From Bacteroidales bacterium UBA1184 (GTDB taxonomy: Bacteria > Bacteroidota > Bacteroidia > Bacteroidales > ML635J-15): DNA of 64,000 bases. Location: NCBI GenBank assembly GCA_002310235.1, contig DBYO01000049.1, positions 31,215 to 95,214 of the forward strand. Direction: 5' to 3'. Shown here piece by piece: positions 1-9,765 of this stretch (position 1 is the stretch's first letter; each line of letters starts with the position of its first letter). A model generated the notes under the pieces. It saw only the letters and a list, made by a program, of their open reading frames with translations. It was not told the origin of the DNA and searched no databases. The translations under genes were made by a program, and so were the position numbers.

Positions 1-389
1 GTTGCTCCGAAAACGAGAATTATGTCGGGATTACCGATGTTTGGTGCACGAGTGATAAAAGAGCGGTCCTTGTAGTCGCGACCGTAATATCCGCTGTAGC
101 TGATTGTTGAACCACTGTACGAGTTGTTGATGTCGAGTTGCAGTCCGTATTCGTCGCAGAGAATCCACCACCATGTTTGTTCTACTTTTTCCACATCGGT
201 GCGGTCGCGCTTGTTTTTAAAGTACCATTGCTCGTTTTCCATCGGCGTCGTGTAGCCTTCGAAGGTGCTGTACGAGTCACCGAGGATTGAGACTGTGGGG
301 AGTTGGGAAAAGGACTCTCCCAGAAATCCCATCAAAAATATAACTATGAATACTATATTTTTGATTAAATTTAATTTCGAATATTTCAT
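1..389 (-). CDS. SGNH/GDSL-family hydrolase, N-terminal part (gene runs off the left edge)
   Basis: Absent from the ORF track because it is truncated. My translation of the minus strand from the ATG at 389-387 gives MKYSKLNLIKNIVFIVIFLMGFLGESFSQLPTVSILGDSYSTFEGY..., a signal peptide followed by the GDS block I motif of SGNH hydrolases. Confidence 0.7.
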   Translation of the reverse strand, partial: MKYSKLNLIKNIVFIVIFLMGFLGESFSQLPTVSILGDSYSTFEGYTTPMENEQWYFKNKRDRTDVEKVEQTWWWILCDEYGLQLDINNSYSGSTISYSGYYGRDYKDRSFITRAPNIGNPDIILVFGA

Positions 390-420
390 TTCACTATTTC
401 TTTTTCGAATCTTTATTAGT

Positions 421-455
421 CCGTGATTACCTTATTACGTATAAGGTAATTACGG
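421..455. repeat. 35-bp near-perfect inverted repeat (15-bp stem, 5-nt loop)
   Basis: CCGTGATTACCTTAT-TACGT-ATAAGGTAATTACGG; 14 of 15 positions are complementary. It lies between the stop of the 467..1204 gene and the start of the SGNH gene. There is no clear U-tract on the minus strand. Confidence 0.8.
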
Positions 456-466
456 TGCTAGACCTA

Positions 467-1204
467 TTATAAACTCCTCGTTCCATTACATTCTGGATAA
501 TCGCTGCAATTCCAAAACTCTTTTCCTGAATTGACACCTTTCTTTGCTACTCGTTTTATCATTGGTTTACCACATTTGGGGCAGGTCGGTGCTCCTGTTT
601 GAACACTTTGTTCAGTCCGATATGCAAGTCGTTCTGCAGTTAGTCCTTCGGTAAAGCCACCTTCTTGCTTGAATTTGTTAATCTGGTTTTCTATTTGCTT
701 GCCAAGCATCATTATCAGACGATTGCACAAAACAATCAAGCAATTTGCTTCGATAATAGAATCTTTTGAGCATAGCCATTTGTCAAATTTGTGTTTTTGT
801 GCCAGTATGTGAATGCCACTCTGATGTTGCACATCGTCTTTGTATGTTGGACGTTCTAAAGAAATGTACGATACTGCATGATGTTCATCGGATTTTACAG
901 ACCATGGTATTTGTTCTTGTAGCAATAGCCAATTTATATAATCGTTAGCCAATTCAGAAAGACTTGCGCGAACCACATCGGTAAGTCGCATTTCTGTTTC
1001 CTTGGAAGTGGAGTGTCGAGAATTTCCTTCGGCAATATTTGCTGACACCGAGCGTGCGGCCTGTGTCATCTGGTCGTATTGGCGACCGCAAGGATCGTTG
1101 ATTTTATTAAGGTTGCGTAGGCAGAAATCTTGCGTAGCAAGTTGTATGATATTTGCCAGCACCCACGAGTCCAACCAGTAATATCCGAAATTATTTAATT
1201 GCAT
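467..1204 (-). CDS. Four-helix-bundle (23S rRNA intervening-sequence / Avd-like family) protein with a C-terminal extension and a topoisomerase-type C4 zinc ribbon
   Basis: The N-terminus (WVLANIIQLATQDF...QMTQAARSVSANIAEGNSRHS..ETEMRLTDVVRASLSEL) matches the four-helix-bundle family pattern. The C-terminus CPKCGKPMIKRVAKKGVNSGKEFWNCSDYPECNGT is the CxxC...CxxxxxC zinc ribbon seen in topoisomerase I C-termini. Confidence 0.7.
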   Translation of the reverse strand: MQLNNFGYYWLDSWVLANIIQLATQDFCLRNLNKINDPCGRQYDQMTQAARSVSANIAEGNSRHSTSKETEMRLTDVVRASLSELANDYINWLLLQEQIPWSVKSDEHHAVSYISLERPTYKDDVQHQSGIHILAQKHKFDKWLCSKDSIIEANCLIVLCNRLIMMLGKQIENQINKFKQEGGFTEGLTAERLAYRTEQSVQTGAPTCPKCGKPMIKRVAKKGVNSGKEFWNCSDYPECNGTRSL

Positions 1205-1226: not shown

Positions 1227-1703
1227 TTATTTCACCCACTCCTTATACGGCTTTTTGCAAAGCTGCGAGTTGTTGTATTTTTTGTCGCCTGTGACTTCCT
1301 TGTCAATCCATTCTGGAAGAGAGAACTTCGTATCTTCGGTCGGGACTTCGATTTCGGCAACGACAAGTCCTGCATTTTCGCCCAGGAACTCATCGACTTC
1401 CCATTTCAAACCTTGTTCGGTGGCAGGAACAACATAGCGGTACTTTTCGATTTGTGGTTTGTCGCACATGGTGTCGAGCATCTGGCGGGCTTCGGAGACT
1501 GGAATTTCGTACTCAAATTCGTTGCGACTCATACCTACGGTTTTGTCCTTGAGTGTTACGAATCCCTTTTCACCTGCAATGCGCACTCTTACCGTCATTC
1601 CGTTTTGTGTGGGAATGTAGCCCTGCCTGTATAGTGTAGGAGTGGCTAGCGTCTTGTATTTGTCGCTTTTGACGGTAAATTTATGTTCTATTTCCTTCGC
1701 CAT
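1227..1703 (-). CDS. CYTH-domain protein (triphosphate tunnel metalloenzyme family)
   Basis: The N-terminal EIEHKFTV matches the ExExK signature. It is 158 aa, with alternating charged beta-strand motifs (RVRIAGEKGFVTLK, KWEVDEFLGENAGLVVAEIEV). Confidence 0.8.
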   Translation of the reverse strand: MAKEIEHKFTVKSDKYKTLATPTLYRQGYIPTQNGMTVRVRIAGEKGFVTLKDKTVGMSRNEFEYEIPVSEARQMLDTMCDKPQIEKYRYVVPATEQGLKWEVDEFLGENAGLVVAEIEVPTEDTKFSLPEWIDKEVTGDKKYNNSQLCKKPYKEWVK

Positions 1704-3068: not shown

Positions 3069-3105
3069 ACTGTTATTTCGTTAATTCAGATAATCAAAAA
3101 AAAAG

Positions 3106-3178
<73 letters not shown>

Positions 3179-3197
3179 ACTTAATAATTAAGTGGTA

Positions 3198-3205
3198 CAA
3201 AAGTA
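3198..3205 (-). promoter_or_regulatory. Candidate Bacteroidota -7 promoter box (TACTTTTG) for tRNA-Thr
   Basis: Matches the TAnnTTTG consensus about 20 nt upstream of the tRNA 5' end. Confidence 0.35.
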
Positions 3206-3264
3206 TATCTTTTTTTCGGAACGCAAAAAAAAAATTTGACTTTGCCGTAAAATCAGCAACACGA

Positions 3265-3879
3265 TTAATTAACCGCAGGTGTTGGCACGTTTGCAATAAT
3301 TACATATATGTTATTTACAAACATATTTATGGCGATTGCTAAGAGTATCACACCGAAGAATTTGCGGATGATGAAAATAAGGTTCGCACCTAGCCAGTCT
3401 TTTACTTTATCGAGTAGTCGGATAACAAAGTAGTCGAGTATAAGGTTGAGTAACAGACCAATAAGTATGTTGAGTACTGCATATTCGGCACGTAGCGACA
3501 ACAAGGCAGTAAGTGCACCCGGACCTGCAATAAGGGGGAAAGCCACAGGTACTATACTTGCTCCACTTCCAATATTTTCGTTTTTGATGATTTCACGACC
3601 GAGTATCATCTCCACTGCCAGTACAAATAGTACCAGCGAACCAGCTACTGCAAACGATGCAGTGTCGATGCCAAAAAGTTTGAACAAAGCGTCGCCGGCA
3701 AAAAAGAATAGCAAAAACAACCCCAGAGCCATAAGGCACGCAGGTAAAGCTTTTATTGGCTGGTTCTTTTCTTTTAAGCTCAGAAAAATAGGAATAGAGC
3801 CTAAAATGTCGATGATTGCGAACATCACAATGAACGAACTGAGTACCTCGATGATGTTAAATTGTCCGAAAAATTCCAT
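3265..3879 (-). CDS. MarC-family (UPF0056) integral membrane protein
   Basis: 204 aa, multi-pass. The N-terminus FIVMFAIIDILGSIPIFLSL and the PLIAGPGA motif are typical of the MarC family. Confidence 0.85.
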   Translation of the reverse strand: MEFFGQFNIIEVLSSFIVMFAIIDILGSIPIFLSLKEKNQPIKALPACLMALGLFLLFFFAGDALFKLFGIDTASFAVAGSLVLFVLAVEMILGREIIKNENIGSGASIVPVAFPLIAGPGALTALLSLRAEYAVLNILIGLLLNLILDYFVIRLLDKVKDWLGANLIFIIRKFFGVILLAIAINMFVNNIYVIIANVPTPAVN

Positions 3880-3900
3880 ATTTGCTATATTTTTATTGTT

Positions 3901-4182
3901 TTACCGCTTCAATTCACGGCGATTCTTGCCGATATACATAAAATATAATGCCAAATCGAATGACACCAAAACTGCGTTAAAGACATAGAGCCATATTACG
4001 ACATCGTTGCTGTACAACGACTTATGAATAATTCCAAAAATGTATCCTAATATAATAAGGGACATAAAAAGCGGACTTTTTCCAATTACTACTTTAGTGC
4101 GTAATGATTTTGCGATTGAAACTGGCCAGCTCACCGCAAAGCAGAGCAGAAAAAGTACTTCCCAAATGCTAAAATTTGCCAT
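3901..4182 (-). CDS. Small 3-TM membrane protein, PQ-loop/SemiSWEET-like (tentative)
   Basis: 93 aa with three hydrophobic helices. TM1 ends in SWPVSIAKSLRTK, which resembles the PQ-loop motif followed by basic residues. Confidence 0.5.
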   Translation of the reverse strand: MANFSIWEVLFLLCFAVSWPVSIAKSLRTKVVIGKSPLFMSLIILGYIFGIIHKSLYSNDVVIWLYVFNAVLVSFDLALYFMYIGKNRRELKR

Positions 4183-4198
4183 AACTTTATTCTTTTAC

Positions 4199-5521
4199 TT
4201 AAATTACATTGTTTCTACATATATAATGATAATGAGGACCGAAACGCTTGAATGCTGCTTCTTCGAGTTCCTCTTGATATTTAGGATTGGCGATTGAAAT
4301 TATTAGTTTCGCCCTTTCCTGCAGCGACTTTCCATATAGGTTTACAGCTCCGTATTCGGTTATGAACCAATGAATATGGTTTCTTGTCGTTACTGCTCCC
4401 GATCCAAGGTCAAGAGCAGGTACAATTTTGTTGATTCCCCGTTTTGTTGTCGATGGCATGGCGATGATTGCTTTGCCGCCTTTGGCACGTGTAGAACCGT
4501 AAACGAAATCGATTTGTCCGCCTACGCCTGAATAAATCTTGTCGCCAAGCGAGTCTGCGCATACCTGACCCGACAAGTCAACCTGAATGGCCGAGTTTAT
4601 CGAAGTCATTTTGGGTTGCTGCGCTATTATGAACGGGTCGTTGGTGTATTCCACATCTTTCATCAGAACCATTGGGTTGCTGTCGATGAAATTGTATATT
4701 TTCTGTGAGCCCATTACGAATGTAGAAACAATCTTGCCCTTGTCAAGACGCTTTTTTGCTCCTGTAATTATGCCTTTTTTTATCAAAGGCAGTATTCCAT
4801 CAGAAAACATTTCTGTATGAATACCAATGTCCTTGTGGTTGCCAAGGCACGAAAGTATTGCGTTCGGAATGGAACCTATACCCATTTGCAGGCAGGCGCC
4901 GTCTTCGATAAGTTCGGCACAATAGCGGCCGATGGTACGTTCAATTTCCGTTGGTTTCGCAAAATCGACGGTTAGCAACGGGCTATCGTCCTCTACTATA
5001 TAGTCGATATTGCTTATGTGTATCAGCGAATCGCCAAGCGAGCGGGGAACATTCTTGTTTACAACTGCTATGGTAAATTCGGCGCATTCCATGGCAGCAA
5101 GAGTCGCATCGACAGAAGTGCCAAGCGATACGTATCCGAACTTGTCTGGTGGACAAACCTGAATCATTGCCACGTTGCACTTTATGTAGCGTTCGCGATA
5201 AAGTTTAGATGTTTCGCCGAGGAATACTGGAATGTAGTCGGCAAGTCCTTTTTGCACGCTTTCCCTTACGTTTGCTCCCACAAAAAATGCATTGTGCTGG
5301 AAAATCCCTTCAAATTCTGGATTTACATATGGTGCTGCACCTTCGGTATGTAGATGGTGGATATATACGTTTTTCAGTTCTCCGTTGCGACCTCTGTCGC
5401 ACATTGCCTTTATCAAGCATTGTGGAACATTTGATACTGAACTAATGTGAACGTGGTCCCCCGATTTTATTACCTTTACGGCTTCTTCCGCTGTCACTGC
5501 ACTATAACTTTTCTTCTTCAT
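4199..5521 (-). CDS. Acetyl-CoA hydrolase/transferase-family CoA-transferase (4-hydroxybutyrate / butyryl-CoA:acetate CoA-transferase-like)
   Basis: 440 aa. Its length and motifs (SGDHVHISSVSNVPQ, GGQIDFVYG, GKAIIAMPSTT) are typical of the family. Confidence 0.85.
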   Translation of the reverse strand: MKKKSYSAVTAEEAVKVIKSGDHVHISSVSNVPQCLIKAMCDRGRNGELKNVYIHHLHTEGAAPYVNPEFEGIFQHNAFFVGANVRESVQKGLADYIPVFLGETSKLYRERYIKCNVAMIQVCPPDKFGYVSLGTSVDATLAAMECAEFTIAVVNKNVPRSLGDSLIHISNIDYIVEDDSPLLTVDFAKPTEIERTIGRYCAELIEDGACLQMGIGSIPNAILSCLGNHKDIGIHTEMFSDGILPLIKKGIITGAKKRLDKGKIVSTFVMGSQKIYNFIDSNPMVLMKDVEYTNDPFIIAQQPKMTSINSAIQVDLSGQVCADSLGDKIYSGVGGQIDFVYGSTRAKGGKAIIAMPSTTKRGINKIVPALDLGSGAVTTRNHIHWFITEYGAVNLYGKSLQERAKLIISIANPKYQEELEEAAFKRFGPHYHYICRNNVI

Positions 5522-5624
5522 TAGAACATAAATTTAATCATACATAATATTTGCAGCGGCCGGAATACAGCACATTAATGGTTTCTATACTTTTATCACC
5601 ACGCCCTTAATCCCGAAGGCTGCG

Positions 5625-5790
5625 ATTATGGAAAACAGGCAGGTCTTCTGGCTCGTTCAAGCTTAACGCGTCTTCCCGGACAATGCCAGTGACTTGGTGC
5701 GAAAAGCCGTTTCCTGAACTTACAGCTACGGGTATAGCTCTTGATTTTCACAAGATTCCCTATTAATTCCTTGGAAACCTGAATCCGTCG
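5625..5790 (-). promoter_or_regulatory. Cobalamin (B12) riboswitch in the 5' leader of the CoA-transferase gene
   Basis: The minus strand carries AATAGGGAATCTTGTGAAAATCAAGAGCTATACCCGTAGCTGTAAG, then GTCACTGG..CCGGGAAGAC, then the B12 box AGCCAGAAGACCTGCC (plus-strand 5638-5653). These match the conserved core of the Rfam cobalamin family (RF00174). Confidence 0.85.
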
Positions 5791-5798
5791 CAAAAGTA
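5791..5798 (-). promoter_or_regulatory. Candidate -7 promoter box (TACTTTTG) driving the riboswitch leader
   Basis: TAnnTTTG match immediately upstream of the riboswitch 5' end. Confidence 0.4.
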
Positions 5799-5858
5799 GT
5801 GTATATTTTTTGTTTTTTATGCAAAAAAATGCTGTTTTGTTTTTGTTTTGGTTTTTGC

Positions 5859-5866
5859 TAACTTTG
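5859..5866 (+). promoter_or_regulatory. Candidate -7 promoter box (TAACTTTG) for dapB
   Basis: TAnnTTTG match 28 nt upstream of the dapB ATG. Confidence 0.4.
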
Positions 5867-5893
5867 CAACTTTTTACAGCAAAGATTTATATA

Positions 5894-6607
5894 ATGAATA
5901 TTGTTCTAATTGGATACGGAAAGATGGGTAAGGAGATTGAGCGCGTGGTGCTTGAACGCGGACACCGTATCTCCGAAATTTTTGACATCGATCGCGACAT
6001 TCGTTCCTGCGGCGATATAGCTTCGCTCGGTGATGTGGCTGTAGAGTTTTCGACGCCTAAGACGGCAGAGCAAAATGTTATGGCCTGTGTGAAAGGCGGT
6101 CTGCGCGTGGTGTCGGGTACTACCGGCTGGACTTTCGATGCCGCAGCTATGGACAAGTTGTGCCGCGAAAATTCGTCTGCATTTTTCTATTCGTCAAACT
6201 ATAGCATCGGAATGAACATCTTTATGGCGGTCAACCGTATGCTGGCACAGAAACTTGCTGTTTATCCGCAGTATTCGGCTCGAATCGAAGAAACTCATCA
6301 CATCCACAAACTTGACAAACCTAGCGGTACCGCCATAACGCTTGCCAAAGGCATTATTGAAAACAATTCGCGTTATTCGGATTGGAAACTTGAAGAGGGT
6401 GCGGACAATATTCTCGAAATAAAATCGTTTAGGGAAGGTGAGGTTTTTGGCGACCATAGTGTGCTGTGGTCTAGCGATTTCGACGATATCACAATCACGC
6501 ATTCTGCAAAAAGCCGTCGCGGATTGGCAAATGGCGCAGTTCTTGCTGCAGAATTCCTTGCGGGAAAATGTGGTATGTTTACAATGAATGATTTACTTGG
6601 ATTATAA
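5894..6607 (+). CDS. dapB: 4-hydroxy-tetrahydrodipicolinate reductase
   Basis: The track ORF starts at TTG 5810. I re-anchored to ATG 5894 ([16 protein letters not shown], a Rossmann GxGxxG). It also has the [16 protein letters not shown] signature. Confidence 0.9.
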
Positions 6608-6611
6608 GAAT

Positions 6612-8315
6612 ATGTTCGGAAATAAAAAAAATACAGAAAATGTGGCTGTCAATAAGCCAAACAATGAGCTGAAAAAGGGTTGGACTATAAAAATCGGCAA
6701 ATGTGAAAAGTTCATTGAGATGCCTTCGCGTCGCAACTGGATATGGTTTGCAGCGTGGACAATCTTCTACATCGGCTGGGTAATTTGGCTCGGAAACTAT
6801 TGGTTCTTGCTCGGCGAACTGCTGATAATCGATATTTACATCACAAAGTTTGTACGTTGGGCCTTCTGGAAACCGAGGAATCCCGAAAACTGCTCGAAGG
6901 CAAAACGCAAGACTCTAGAATGGGTTGATGCCCTCATATTTGCTGTGATTGCAGCATCGTTTATTAGGATTTTCTTCTTCGAGGCGTTTACTATTCCGAC
7001 ATCGTCGATGGAAAAAACCTTGCAAGTGGGTGATTATCTTTTTGTCAGCAAGACAGCGTATGGTCCACGTGTACCTATGACTCCGATTTCGTTCCCATTT
7101 GTTCACCATACGCTTCCGTTCACGCAGAATACGCCATCGTATGTTACTTGGATACAAAACGAATACCGTCGATTGGTGGGGTGGGGCGATATTAAGCGTG
7201 ACGATATGGTGGTTTTTAACTATCCTACAGGCGATACTGTGGTTTTACAGATTCCTGCCCAGGATTACTACGACATTGTTAGGATAACGCAGTTCCGCAT
7301 GGCAGATTTCGATTTGCAGTATTCGACGATGATGAACAAAAAAATCCTAGTTGGAAACGTATCGCAGAAAACAAACGACTATTATGTGAATCTGGCATAT
7401 TCACTGTTCAATCCTATGGTAAATCCTGCACATACCAACTCTTTTATTAACGAGGCATCGACTAAGTTGCGCGAGAACGAGACTAAGCTTGCAAAGGAGA
7501 ATCCTGCAATTTCCGATATGGACAAATATTTCCGTCTTGCCCGCCAGATAGTGTGGGATATGTACGATATTACCGTACGTCCTGTGGATAAGCGCGAAAA
7601 CTATATCAAACGTTGTGTGGCTATCGCTGGTGATACGTTGGAAGTGCGTGATGGCGAAGTTTTTGTAAACGGAAAACCGCAGAAAGAAATTCCTACAAAG
7701 CAGTTCAACTATCGTCTTGTAATAAATACGGCAAGTATTTCCGAGAAAGTATTACGTCAGAATGAGATAAACGGTTCCGATGTTTACGATTTACGCACAG
7801 ATAGCATAACATATAAAGTGCTTCCACTTACTGCCGAGAATTACGAGAAATTCAAAAATATGTCGTTTGTGCAGTCTATTACCAAGAATACAGTTGCAAA
7901 AGGCTTTACTGGAGATGATAGTTTCCGTATTTTCCCACATAACGATAAATTTCCATGGAATGTCGATTGGTTTGGTCCTCTGTACATACCGAAGGCTGGC
8001 GACAAGATTAAACTTACCGAGGAAAACCTTATCCTTTATGGTCGCGTAATAGGTTACTATGAGGGGAATACGCTTGAAGTTAAGGATGGCAAGGCTTATA
8101 TAAACGGTCAGCCTGCTACCGAATACACTTTTAAAATGAACTATTATTGGATGATGGGAGACAATCGCCACAATTCAGCCGACTCTCGCTATTGGGGTTT
8201 TGTGCCCGAAGACCACATAGTGGGCAAGGCATGGCTCATTTGGCTGTCTATGGATAAGGAATATGGCGGAATACGTTGGAGCAGAATAGGAAAGATTGTT
8301 CATAATGAAGACTAA
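6612..8315 (+). CDS. lepB: Signal peptidase I (long Bacteroidota type)
   Basis: S26 boxes are present: TSSMEKTL (nucleophile Ser), [11 protein letters not shown] (general-base Lys) and [17 protein letters not shown]. An alternative in-frame ATG at 6588 overlaps the dapB end. Confidence 0.9.
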
Positions 8316-9144
8316 AAAGATATTGATTGTGGTTTTGCTGCTCGCCATTATTGGTGGCGGCGTGGGCTTTTATATGATGTTCGGATTCAACAGCGTGAAA
8401 GCTTCTGACGGAACTGAGAATGTTGTTTTTGTCCGTAAGACAAGTTCTGTAGAAATTGGCGATGAGGTGGCATATTGGTATCCGCTTGAATTTGATACCA
8501 AATTGTCGTCGCGCGATGTGTATGTGGCGAGAGTTGTCGGCGTTCCTGGAGATATAATTCTTATTGACGATGGAGTTTTGCATAGGAACAACAAACCAGT
8601 TGCAGAAGATTATACAACTTATAGCAGATACCGTGCTTCGGTCGATTCGGTAAAAGTGGACTTTGATGCAATACTATCCAAGTACGATGTACGTATTGGC
8701 GAGGTGCTTAACGGAGGTAAGGCATGCGAGTTCGTATGTTCCGAAACTGAATTTGAAAAGATTAAGTCGTCTGAGAAAGTATTCTCGTCATGTCGTAAAA
8801 TAATCGACCGCGACGATTGGAAAGATGTTGATATCTTTCCATCAAGCGCATTTTTTGCATGGAATAAGGACAATTTTGGACCAATGTACCTGCCCAAACA
8901 AGGTGACACATTGAATCTTCATCCGCGAATTGCACCGATATACAAAAATATAATAACTCTTTTCGAGGGCAACGATTTTCAATCGGATACTTATCATGTT
9001 AGAATAAACCAGCAGGATGTCAACGAGTTTGTGCCTCAGAAAAATTACTATTTCATTCTCAACGATGACCGTACTGATAAGCGCGACTCGCGTATGTATG
9101 GTCCGATTCCGGAAGAATATATTATAGGAAAGGTTGTTTGGTAG
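8305..9144 (+). CDS. S26 signal-peptidase-like paralog lacking the catalytic Lys
   Basis: It has an N-terminal TM helix and aligns by eye to lepB. It reads [11 protein letters not shown] where lepB has [11 protein letters not shown], and [17 protein letters not shown] where lepB has [17 protein letters not shown]. The Ser box is degenerate (KASDGTEN). Confidence 0.75.
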
Positions 9145-9765
9145 ATGATTGCATTGCTTTCAACGGCTTTCTTTCCAAATGTACAATACATGAGCAAGTT
9201 TCTTGCCCATGAGGTGCTTATTGAAAAGTACGAGACCTATCCTAAGCAGACTTATCGTAATCGTTGCAATATATTGAGTGCAAACGGCGTTTTACCGTTG
9301 TCGGTGCCTGTGCAGAAGAATTATCACATCTTGACAAAGGATATTCGCATCGACTATTCAGAAATGTGGCAGCGCAATCATCTTACATCCTTGAAATCGG
9401 CATACAAGAATTCTGCCTTCTACGATTACTATTTTTACAAATTTGAACGTTTTTTCGAGAAAAAGGAGAAATTTCTTATAGACTTGAATGAAAAAGTGCT
9501 TCAAGCGCTATTCTCGGTACTTAAGATAGATGCGGATTATTCATACACAACTGATTATATTTTCGATTCTGCAAGTTATGCCGATTTTCGCGAAAGTATA
9601 AGTCCAAAACCTTCAAAAAATCGTCCGGATGAGGCTTTTGCAGCAAAGCCATACACACAAGTTTTCTGTGATCGTTTCGAATTTGTGCCCAACCTTAGCA
9701 TTCTCGACTTAATTTTTAATCTAGGCCCTGAAAGCAGAGAATATCTGATAAATTGTATAGGATAG
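9145..9765 (+). CDS. WbqC-family protein
   Basis: The N-terminus LLSTAFFPNVQYMSKFLAHEVLIEKYETYPKQTYRNRCNILSANGVLPLSVPV is the typical Bacteroidota WbqC-like pattern. The position downstream of the lepB pair is conserved. Confidence 0.8.
   Translation: MIALLSTAFFPNVQYMSKFLAHEVLIEKYETYPKQTYRNRCNILSANGVLPLSVPVQKNYHILTKDIRIDYSEMWQRNHLTSLKSAYKNSAFYDYYFYKFERFFEKKEKFLIDLNEKVLQALFSVLKIDADYSYTTDYIFDSASYADFRESISPKPSKNRPDEAFAAKPYTQVFCDRFEFVPNLSILDLIFNLGPESREYLINCIG

Follow-up and report, generated by a model that had tools for sequence, protein, structure and literature searches.

The window analysed here is a 64,000-nucleotide (nt) stretch of the contig DBYO01000049.1 of Bacteroidales bacterium UBA1184, in which a cobalamin (B12) riboswitch on the minus strand stands in front of three genes, encoding a CoA-transferase, a small SemiSWEET-like membrane protein and a membrane protein of the MarC family. 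The riboswitch itself is an ordinary member of its Rfam family, RF00174, its cargo is non-canonical, and the link between the two is strongly conserved and clade-specific. In the order of the presumed transcript, the locus is composed of the following features.

5791–5798, minus strand: Bacteroidetes-type promoter -7 box TACTTTTG (TAnnTTTG), read from the sequence
5621–5797, minus strand: cobalamin riboswitch aptamer (RF00174), full-length match to the covariance model
5638–5653, minus strand: B12 box AGCCAGAAGACCTGCC, from the sequence and the RF00174 match
4199–5521, minus strand: Family I CoA-transferase, 440 amino acids, 4-hydroxybutyrate / butyryl-CoA:acetate subfamily, from Pfam, NCBIfam and PDB matches
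3901–4182, minus strand: 93-amino-acid three-helix membrane protein with a predicted SemiSWEET/PQ-loop-like fold, from an AlphaFold model and a fold search
3265–3879, minus strand: MarC/NAAT-family six-helix membrane protein, 204 amino acids, from PF01914

The riboswitch and the three genes that it heads

When the whole window was searched with cmscan against Rfam 15, RF00174 matched at 5621–5797 with 97.6 bits (E 4e-23), against a gathering score of 31.5 bits, and the match takes in model positions 1–189 of 189. A cobalamin riboswitch had been proposed here from three hallmark sequence blocks, all of which are found in the minus-strand read, and the aptamer is a real one. The scan gave one further match in the 64 kb, a tRNA at 3106–3178 (minus strand), and no second riboswitch elsewhere. 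In 22 aligned aptamers from this and related leaders the B12-box core CAGAAGACCT is invariant, and the blocks AGGGAA, GTG..A.TC, GCCACTG/GTCACTG and GGGAAG vary little or not at all. The promoter box expected directly upstream is also in place, since TACTTTTG lies immediately next to where base pairing in the aptamer begins, and nearly all aligned leaders of relatives that reach that far carry TAnnTTTG in the same register. For the extended -7 motif, TANNTTTGCNNCNG, 0.7 chance occurrences are expected, so that the motif by itself is not significant. A sigma-70 promoter scan returned nine hits against 6.8 expected and is uninformative for Bacteroidetes.

Three open reading frames (ORFs) follow the aptamer on the same strand (4199–5521, 3901–4182 and 3265–3879), with intergenic gaps of 16 and 21 nt and, in a terminator scan, no terminator-like site on the minus strand between them. 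The riboswitch hence heads a compact three-gene unit, as the original prediction had it. That prediction also placed the start codon of the CoA-transferase about 105 nt downstream; its position 3' of the aptamer is correct, and the spacing from the aptamer end measures 99 nt.

The first gene encodes an active-looking CoA-transferase that, judged by sequence comparison, is a member of the 4-hydroxybutyrate/butyrate branch. Both of its domains score above the Pfam thresholds (PF02550, AcetylCoA_hydro, 97.5 bits; PF13336, AcetylCoA_hyd_C, 199.4 bits), and in the PDB it matches the 4-hydroxybutyrate CoA-transferases 2oas (434 bits, 49% identity), 3eh7 (410 bits, 47% identity) and AbfT, 3gk7 (371 bits). 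E237, in the motif HTEMFSDG, coincides in the alignment with the glutamate of GIHSEMISDG in AbfT, presumably the catalytic residue, and residues 332–339, GVGGQIDF, provide the GxGGQxDF motif; E237, G334, G335, Q336 and D338 are invariant in 14 CoA-transferase homologues. The best NCBIfam model is TIGR03948 (butyryl-CoA:acetate), at 317.6 bits. The window enzyme is thus like AbfT/Cat2 (2oas, 3eh7, 3gk7) and the TIGR03948 enzymes in both Pfam domains, in its length of about 440 amino acids, in the glutamate motif and in GxGGQxDF, but it stays below the TIGR03948 equivalog cut-off of 674.8 bits and, unlike AbfT/Cat2, has no adjoining 4-hydroxybutyrate or butyrate pathway genes. In the papers found, B12 regulation of characterised AbfT/Cat2-type enzymes is not described. 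A speculative link to B12 had first been drawn through the CoA-transferase of the succinate-to-propionate route, said to be of this same family, but the window enzyme belongs to another subfamily. An identity as ScpC/ASCT was rejected on the scores, which are 108.3 bits against YgfH/ScpC TIGR03458 (cut-off 658.7), 88.1 bits against ScpC NF053853 (cut-off 500) and 63–66 bits against structures of the succinyl-CoA:acetate transferase AarC.

The 93-amino-acid product of the second gene has no Pfam or NCBIfam match, PF04193 and PF03083 included. Structure prediction from the single sequence was too weak (pLDDT, a per-residue confidence score, of 67), and an AlphaFold model made with a 64-sequence alignment (pLDDT 94.6) was used instead. 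SemiSWEETs occupy ranks 1–13 of its PDB fold matches throughout, with TM-scores of 0.49–0.74 (query-normalised) or 0.51–0.82 (target-normalised), a root-mean-square deviation down to 1.7 Å and a sequence identity of 12–21%. On this model the protein is predicted to have the SemiSWEET fold, the three-helix bundle of a single PQ-loop repeat, in agreement with its initial description as PQ-loop-like. Its family counts about 700 representatives, in which W19, P20, F39 and Y47 are invariant and the P-Q dipeptide after helix 1 is missing, with the invariant W19-P20 (SWP) instead; 19 of 45 diverse members weakly match PF04193 (best E 6.4e-5), and two match MtN3_slv. Therefore, fold, size and three-helix topology are those of the SemiSWEET/PQ-loop transporters, from which the protein differs by having W-P rather than P-Q and by its lack of a Pfam match. 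A general B12 link of the family was rejected, because no Rfam family matched upstream of three remote members (L086–L091). The upstream gaps of these remote members are 120–275 nt, and genes for GGDEF and two-component system proteins lie near those of L088 and L089.

The third gene product, previously called MarC-like, matches PF01914 with 102.1 bits (gathering score 23.9) over profile positions 4–201 of 203, a full-length match that it has in common with the MarC/NAAT family (MarC, YchE and YhgN of Escherichia coli; SnatA). Unlike these known members, it falls below the NCBIfam subfamily and equivalog cut-offs (84.5 bits against the NAAT subfamily model TIGR00427, under its cut-off of 99.2), and it is paired with a CoA-transferase under probable B12 control.

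Conservation of the linkage in related Bacteroidales

A scan of one genome per species yielded 80 CoA-transferase loci. They comprise a close group of 47 loci in 46 assemblies, with CoA-transferases at least 84% identical, and a distant group of 33 loci, with an identity of 69–75%. All 80 loci were searched with a profile of the 22 aptamers, and Rfam was also run on the 33 distant loci, on nine close loci and on 17 further close loci with an unusual or negative result in the profile search. The close group is entirely uncultured and comes almost wholly from the rumen or other ruminant gut, under the names Bacteroidales, 'bacterium F082' and Candidatus Limimorpha; the exact CoA-transferase of the window is also present on rumen metagenome contigs, in the same gene order. 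The distant group is made up of Paludibacteraceae, Salinivirgaceae, Onthomorpha, Microbacter and others.

This comparative check found the riboswitch at 43 of the 47 close loci, where RF00174 (74–112 bits) shares the strand of the CoA-transferase and precedes it, either immediately or separated from it solely by genes that run in the same direction. The riboswitch stands directly upstream of the CoA-transferase in 33 loci, and in eight a protein of 889–1069 amino acids is placed between them; in L016 the intervening protein has a DUF4465 domain and a type IX secretion system (T9SS) tail and ends 5 nt from the CoA-transferase. Two loci have other layouts, in which the riboswitch is followed by a btuB-like TonB-dependent receptor, a CbiK-like protein, the CoA-transferase and MarC (L041), or by nrdD, nrdG and the CoA-transferase (L049). 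As for the four exceptions, the contig of L023 ends 1.3 kb upstream, and in L033–L035 a T9SS-tailed ORF exceeds the 4-kb flank. In the distant group, neither the profile nor Rfam found a cobalamin riboswitch upstream of the CoA-transferase in any of the 33 loci. In two of them (L059 and L061) a riboswitch lies 1.7 kb downstream and heads a DUF4465 gene, and in L072 one is found in the opposite orientation.

The aptamers in front of these genes are far from uniform, as the mean column identity of the 22 aligned sequences is 57% and at least four lineages can be told apart: the window type, the GTCAGAAGACCTGCC type, a type without the P2 hairpin, and the types of L041 and L049. These divergent aptamers stand before near-identical CoA-transferase genes, which argues for selection and not for the inheritance of a single accident, and indicates that the control has survived exchanges of leaders and fusions of operons. 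It is very probable that the riboswitch regulates the genes of the CoA-transferase operon.

The composition of the operon varies around a constant core. MarC is the next gene after the CoA-transferase in 44 of the 47 close loci and in one of the 33 distant ones (L054), in which the CoA-transferase–MarC pair has no riboswitch. A SemiSWEET-like gene is present in ten close loci and a gene for an Asp-Al_Ex (AAEx) transporter in ten others, after MarC in seven of them (with a gap of 33–47 nt in the four that were measured) and nearby in three more. The two genes never occur in the same locus (L006–L051), and this mutual exclusion suggests that they are interchangeable third components of the operon. 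In L048 the gene order is frdA-frdB-AAEx-riboswitch-CoA-transferase-MarC.

Several of these loci carry further RNA elements or copies. The assembly CAJOIS01 (Red_deer_4_mag_37) holds two CoA-transferase–MarC operons, L028 and L031, with type B and type A aptamers, respectively, which represent either a true duplication or a mixed bin. In L045, L047, L024, L038 and L042, MarC is immediately followed by a second cobalamin riboswitch, in front of genes for very large secreted proteins. Two of these proteins were annotated as follows.

L045: riboswitch 5925–6106, ORF 6248–9304, with fn3, MAM and purple-acid-phosphatase-N domains
L047: riboswitch 6042–6226, ORF 6374–9295, with fn3 and purple-acid-phosphatase-N domains

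The scanned stretches of both ORFs, which run off the end of their loci, gave no Pfam match to DUF4465, and the two proteins are candidates for new B12-regulated surface proteins. Three riboswitches are packed within 3.3 kb in L044, at 3359–3527 (minus), 3608–3804 (plus) and 6493–6684 (plus), and L041 has a divergent back-to-back pair, at 216–412 (minus) and 446–638 (plus), 34 nt apart. Other RNA families were met in the distant group, namely a SAM-II (long loop) riboswitch at 1243–1302 (plus) of L079, from a Salinivirgaceae metagenome-assembled genome (MAG), and the DUF805b and DUF805 motifs at 409–444 (minus) of L055 and 7137–7202 (minus) of L076, from Paludibacter-like and Bacteroidota MAGs.

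The window operon itself is isolated between dapB and tRNA-Thr/ffh, and no B12-dependent enzyme or other B12 gene was noticed in the ORF list of the window, which was annotated to 6.6 kb. Two features lie beyond its 3' end.

3225–3234, minus strand: T10 run after MarC, probable transcript end, with a terminator function suggested by the sequence
3105–3178, minus strand: tRNA-Thr(CGU), from ARAGORN, with the Rfam match at 3106–3178

The tRNA has a separate TAnnTTTG box, TATACTTTTG, at about 3195–3215, just 3' of the T10 run. On the other side, dapB is divergent from the operon, with its start at 5894 (plus). This start is ambiguous (5819–6607, plus), given that an in-frame ATG at 5819 would give 262 amino acids and the ATG at 5894 gives 237 with a typical N-terminus; gene callers are split between 262 and 227 amino acids in L001 and L002. 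With the longer form, dapB would extend, on the opposite strand, to within about 20 nt of the promoter box of the riboswitch.

Leader hairpins and the expression platform

Besides the B12 box, three hairpins of the leader are relevant to how ligand binding could be transmitted to the operon.

5724–5739, minus strand: L5 hairpin AGCUAUACCCGUAGCU, with the loop CCCG at 5729–5732, from the sequence and the RF00174 match
5605–5619, minus strand: P13-like hairpin CCUU-CGGGAUU-AAGG, first element of the expression platform and putative kissing-loop partner of L5, from the alignment
5553–5623, minus strand: long leader hairpin with the base GCAGCC...GGCCGCUGC, followed by AAAUAUUAUG in place of a U-run, from the minimum-free-energy fold

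A hairpin after the aptamer is common to all leaders, with the form AGCUUU-CGGGAAC-AAAAGCU, of which CCUU-CGGGAUU-AAGG is the window version. This P13 hairpin and its CGGGAA loop are kept in all relatives, and its stem shows a compensatory change from U-A to C-G in three of 12 sequences. The CCCG of L5 and the CGGG of the P13 loop are both invariant and are complementary in every lineage, over 4 bp in type A and 6 bp in type B. An L5–L13 kissing loop is known from cobalamin riboswitch structures, and the complementarity suggests that L5 may dock on P13 in the same manner here. A further pairing, predicted by RNAalifold, joins the B12 box (CC.AGAAG..CUGC) to the 5' half of P13 (GCAG.CUUU.CGG) and is a candidate for the ligand-free alternative structure; as the B12 box is invariant, a single change, from G-U to G-C, bears on it.

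The long hairpin of the window corresponds to the terminator stem of its relatives. In 12 of 14 aligned long leaders the stem GCAGC...GCUGC is followed by four to eight U, and the type B long leaders have a terminator of 12 bp, eight of them GC, 33 nt before the start codon. Unlike these leaders, the window and L006, its nearest relative in that alignment, keep the long stem with no U-run after it. With the B12 box blocked in ViennaRNA, the long hairpin of the window formed in both states and no switch was revealed. The short leaders have the P13 hairpin 10–16 nt before the start codon, a proximity that suggests translational occlusion.

An upstream ORF of six codons, AUGAUUAAAUUUAUGUUCUAA (MIKFMF), is located at 5521–5541 (minus strand), and its stop codon overlaps the start of the CoA-transferase (UAAUG). 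It starts 12 nt 3' of the long leader hairpin and might couple the leader and the CoA-transferase; apart from the window, only its nearest relatives L006 and L007 have this ORF.

Polarity of the switch and its proposed function

The riboswitch is likely to turn the operon off when its ligand is bound. B12 typically represses btuB, and nrdDG encodes a standard B12-independent isozyme. Riboswitch-regulated scavenging loci encode DUF4465 domains, which bind B12 with high affinity (PMC13398666). The CoA-transferase shares its transcript with such B12-starvation genes (DUF4465, btuB, nrdDG) in the loci described above, which implies that it is produced under B12 shortage. Down-regulation on binding is the behaviour of most cobalamin riboswitches characterised to date (PMC11575231).

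The model proposed here is as follows. The Bacteroidetes-type promoter and the riboswitch would give rise to one transcript for a short-chain acyl-CoA:carboxylate CoA-transferase, a SemiSWEET-like transporter and a MarC transporter. Binding of adenosylcobalamin or of a similar cobamide would lock the B12 box into the aptamer core and let the CCCG of L5 dock on the CGGG of P13, so that expression falls, in most relatives by way of a leader terminator or of a P13 close to the start codon (10–16 nt). Under B12 scarcity, the 5' half of P13 (GCAG.CCUUCGG) would be the alternative partner of the B12 box, and the operon would be turned on together with the B12-scavenging genes. Rumen Bacteroidales form propionate from succinate by way of succinyl-CoA and the B12-dependent methylmalonyl-CoA mutase. 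When B12 is short, this mutase would be left without its cofactor and the interconversion of succinyl-CoA and propionyl-CoA would stop. The CoA-transferase, if promiscuous, could then make or recycle the missing acyl-CoA from free acids abundant in the rumen (acetate, propionate, succinate and butyrate), and the membrane proteins could carry the small acids concerned, or neutral amino acids, across the membrane.

A riboswitch-gated, B12-sparing module of acyl-CoA and organic-acid metabolism is regarded as the best explanation of the whole locus, and the chance that it is right is put at about even. A bypass of the idle methylmalonyl-CoA mutase is its best-supported functional reading and falls somewhat short of an even chance; substrates and physiological role are speculative. 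The original suggestion of a B12-limitation overflow or bypass module agrees with the evidence as a hypothesis. The pointers to carboxylates, and to succinate in particular, are the enzyme family, the AAEx gene after MarC and frdAB beside the operon of L048. More tentative still is the proposal that in the rumen clade of F082 and Candidatus Limimorpha-like bacteria the riboswitch gates central fermentation, so that a shortage of cobamide would make the CoA-transferase and carboxylate transporters reroute succinate, propionate and acetate. In Xylanibacter ruminicola, propionate formation needs added cobalamin, and genes close to riboswitches rank near the top of the differentially expressed ones; the operon that ranks first, with genes for B12 biosynthesis and TonB transporters, is immediately preceded by a riboswitch (PMC11575231).

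Several observations weigh against this explanation. The enzyme is an equivalog of no curated CoA-transferase model, and the evidence found in the literature for the MarC family concerns amino-acid (threonine) uptake and not carboxylate transport (PMC12003319). The adjacency to frdAB is seen at a single locus, and the distant orthologues lie among housekeeping-looking ORFs (ruvX-like, def and nusA/infB, named from N-terminal sequence), which give no metabolic clue. Regarding the leader, a terminator scan called no intrinsic terminator in that of the window, and its long hairpin is about 30 nt upstream of the start codon. The fold of the whole 301-nt leader gives no energy signal (z = -0.12), so that the identification of the riboswitch rests on the covariance model and not on folding energy. 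Finally, the source organism is uncultured.

Four other explanations have to be considered. It could be argued that the riboswitch is functional and that the CoA-transferase–MarC pair is co-regulated merely by its position in a mobile, rearranging 'B12 island', with no adaptive link to B12. Indeed, extra riboswitches are present within 4 kb in L024, L027, L030, L038, L039, L041, L042, L044, L045, L047 and L048, 31 of the 47 close loci encode a protein that falls into one BLAST cluster with the DUF4465 and T9SS surface proteins, and distant orthologues at times adjoin the riboswitch of another gene (L059, L061 and L072). Nevertheless, a neutral link should often be lost, and control is kept in 43 of the 47 loci, through four layouts and at least four aptamer lineages; besides, the window locus stands alone between dapB and tRNA-Thr/ffh, with no other riboswitch in 64 kb. 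Such hitch-hiking is thus considered unlikely.

An amino-acid supply function, in which MarC imports a neutral amino acid and the CoA-transferase processes the resulting acyl-CoA, is improbable too. The imported amino acid could be methionine, needed if MetH does not work, or threonine, which could give 2-oxobutyrate and propionyl-CoA without B12. Many Bacteroidales have no MetE and need B12 or methionine, and this speaks for such a supply. So do the match of MarC to NAAT-family models and the findings in E. coli, where YchE in multicopy and a mutant MarC complement a threonine-uptake defect and the mutant MarC has measurable threonine uptake (PMC12003319). Against it, MarC has a CoA-transferase, rather than an enzyme of amino-acid metabolism, as its strictly conserved partner, the two alternative third genes (AAEx and SemiSWEET-like) and the adjacency to frdAB point to carboxylates, and MarC stays under the NAAT subfamily cut-off (84.5 against 99.2 bits).

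A role in corrinoid salvage, with membrane proteins that import a corrinoid precursor or lower ligand and an enzyme with an unrecognised function in cobamide remodelling, is very unlikely, even though the operon shares its transcript with, or adjoins, B12-capture genes (btuB, CbiK-like and DUF4465). Cobamide salvage is not known to involve a CoA-transferase at any step, and the dimeric three-helix pore of a SemiSWEET would be too small for a corrinoid. The idea of the original prediction that the membrane proteins are corrinoid-related transporters found no support, given that remote members of the 93-amino-acid family and the CoA-transferase–MarC pair of L054 have no riboswitch and that the 93-amino-acid gene is present in only ten of the 47 close loci. 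An ON switch, inducing a succinate:propionate CoA-transferase when B12 permits propionate formation, is barely credible: the B12-dependent succinate-to-propionate route does need a CoA-transferase (PMC11575231), and in the long leaders P13 and the terminator stem share nucleotides, so that a P13 stabilised by the kissing loop could in principle oppose the terminator, but transcripts shared with btuB, nrdDG and DUF4465 genes are incompatible with B12 induction, the enzyme is outside the ScpC/YgfH subfamily (108 bits against 659) and down-regulation on binding is the rule among characterised members.

The B12-sparing module, which remains the preferred explanation, can be compared with the known B12 regulons. 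The riboswitches of the btuB leaders of E. coli and Bacteroides are like that of the window in the aptamer, the B12 box, the L5/L13 complementarity, the position in the 5' leader and the probable OFF logic, and differ from it in their cargo; the window platform, with its long hairpin that lacks a U-run, is a further difference. Closer in logic is the class of isozymes such as metE and nrdDG/nrdAB (PMC3766115), which would share with the module expression only when B12 is scarce and the replacement of a B12-dependent function; in L049 the CoA-transferase is even part of the same riboswitch-headed transcript as nrdDG. Unlike that class, the CoA-transferase is an isozyme of no B12 enzyme and would at best offer a way round the effects of a mutase without cofactor. 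In a 2013 survey, 535 cobalamin riboswitch sites are assigned solely to biosynthesis, transport of B12 or its precursors, cobalt transport and isozymes, and a term search of it finds no mention of CoA-transferases (PMC3766115). Searches for papers that link cobalamin or B12 riboswitches to CoA-transferases brought up, judged by titles and abstracts, incidental co-mentions only, and the early view that this cargo is not a standard member of the B12 regulon is sustained. A search for 'achX' plus B12 found nothing; Rodionov et al. (JBC, 2003) reportedly listed an acetyl-CoA hydrolase-like 'achX' behind a B12 element in some anaerobe, which would be a precedent for the general idea if right. In X. 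ruminicola KHP1 there are four riboswitches, none of them near a propionate-pathway gene (PMC11575231).

The conserved association extends the B12 regulon past uptake, biosynthesis and isozymes, as over 40 uncultured species would have a metabolic enzyme and its transporters regulated by B12. It also offers handles on three poorly understood families, the 4-hydroxybutyrate-type CoA-transferases, MarC and the new SemiSWEET-like family. Riboswitch mechanisms are poorly known in Bacteroidetes, partly because Shine-Dalgarno sequences are not used, and these leaders provide a natural set of platform variants, with a terminator, a hairpin close to the start codon or a hairpin without a U-run. The propionate and succinate output of rumen Bacteroidales depends on B12 and has an effect on the glucose supply of the host and on methane formation. 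The linkage in 43 of 47 loci suggests that uncultured rumen Bacteroidales rewire their organic-acid metabolism when B12 is short. If this is true, the availability of B12 would set the profile of acid end products at the RNA level, unlike in X. ruminicola.

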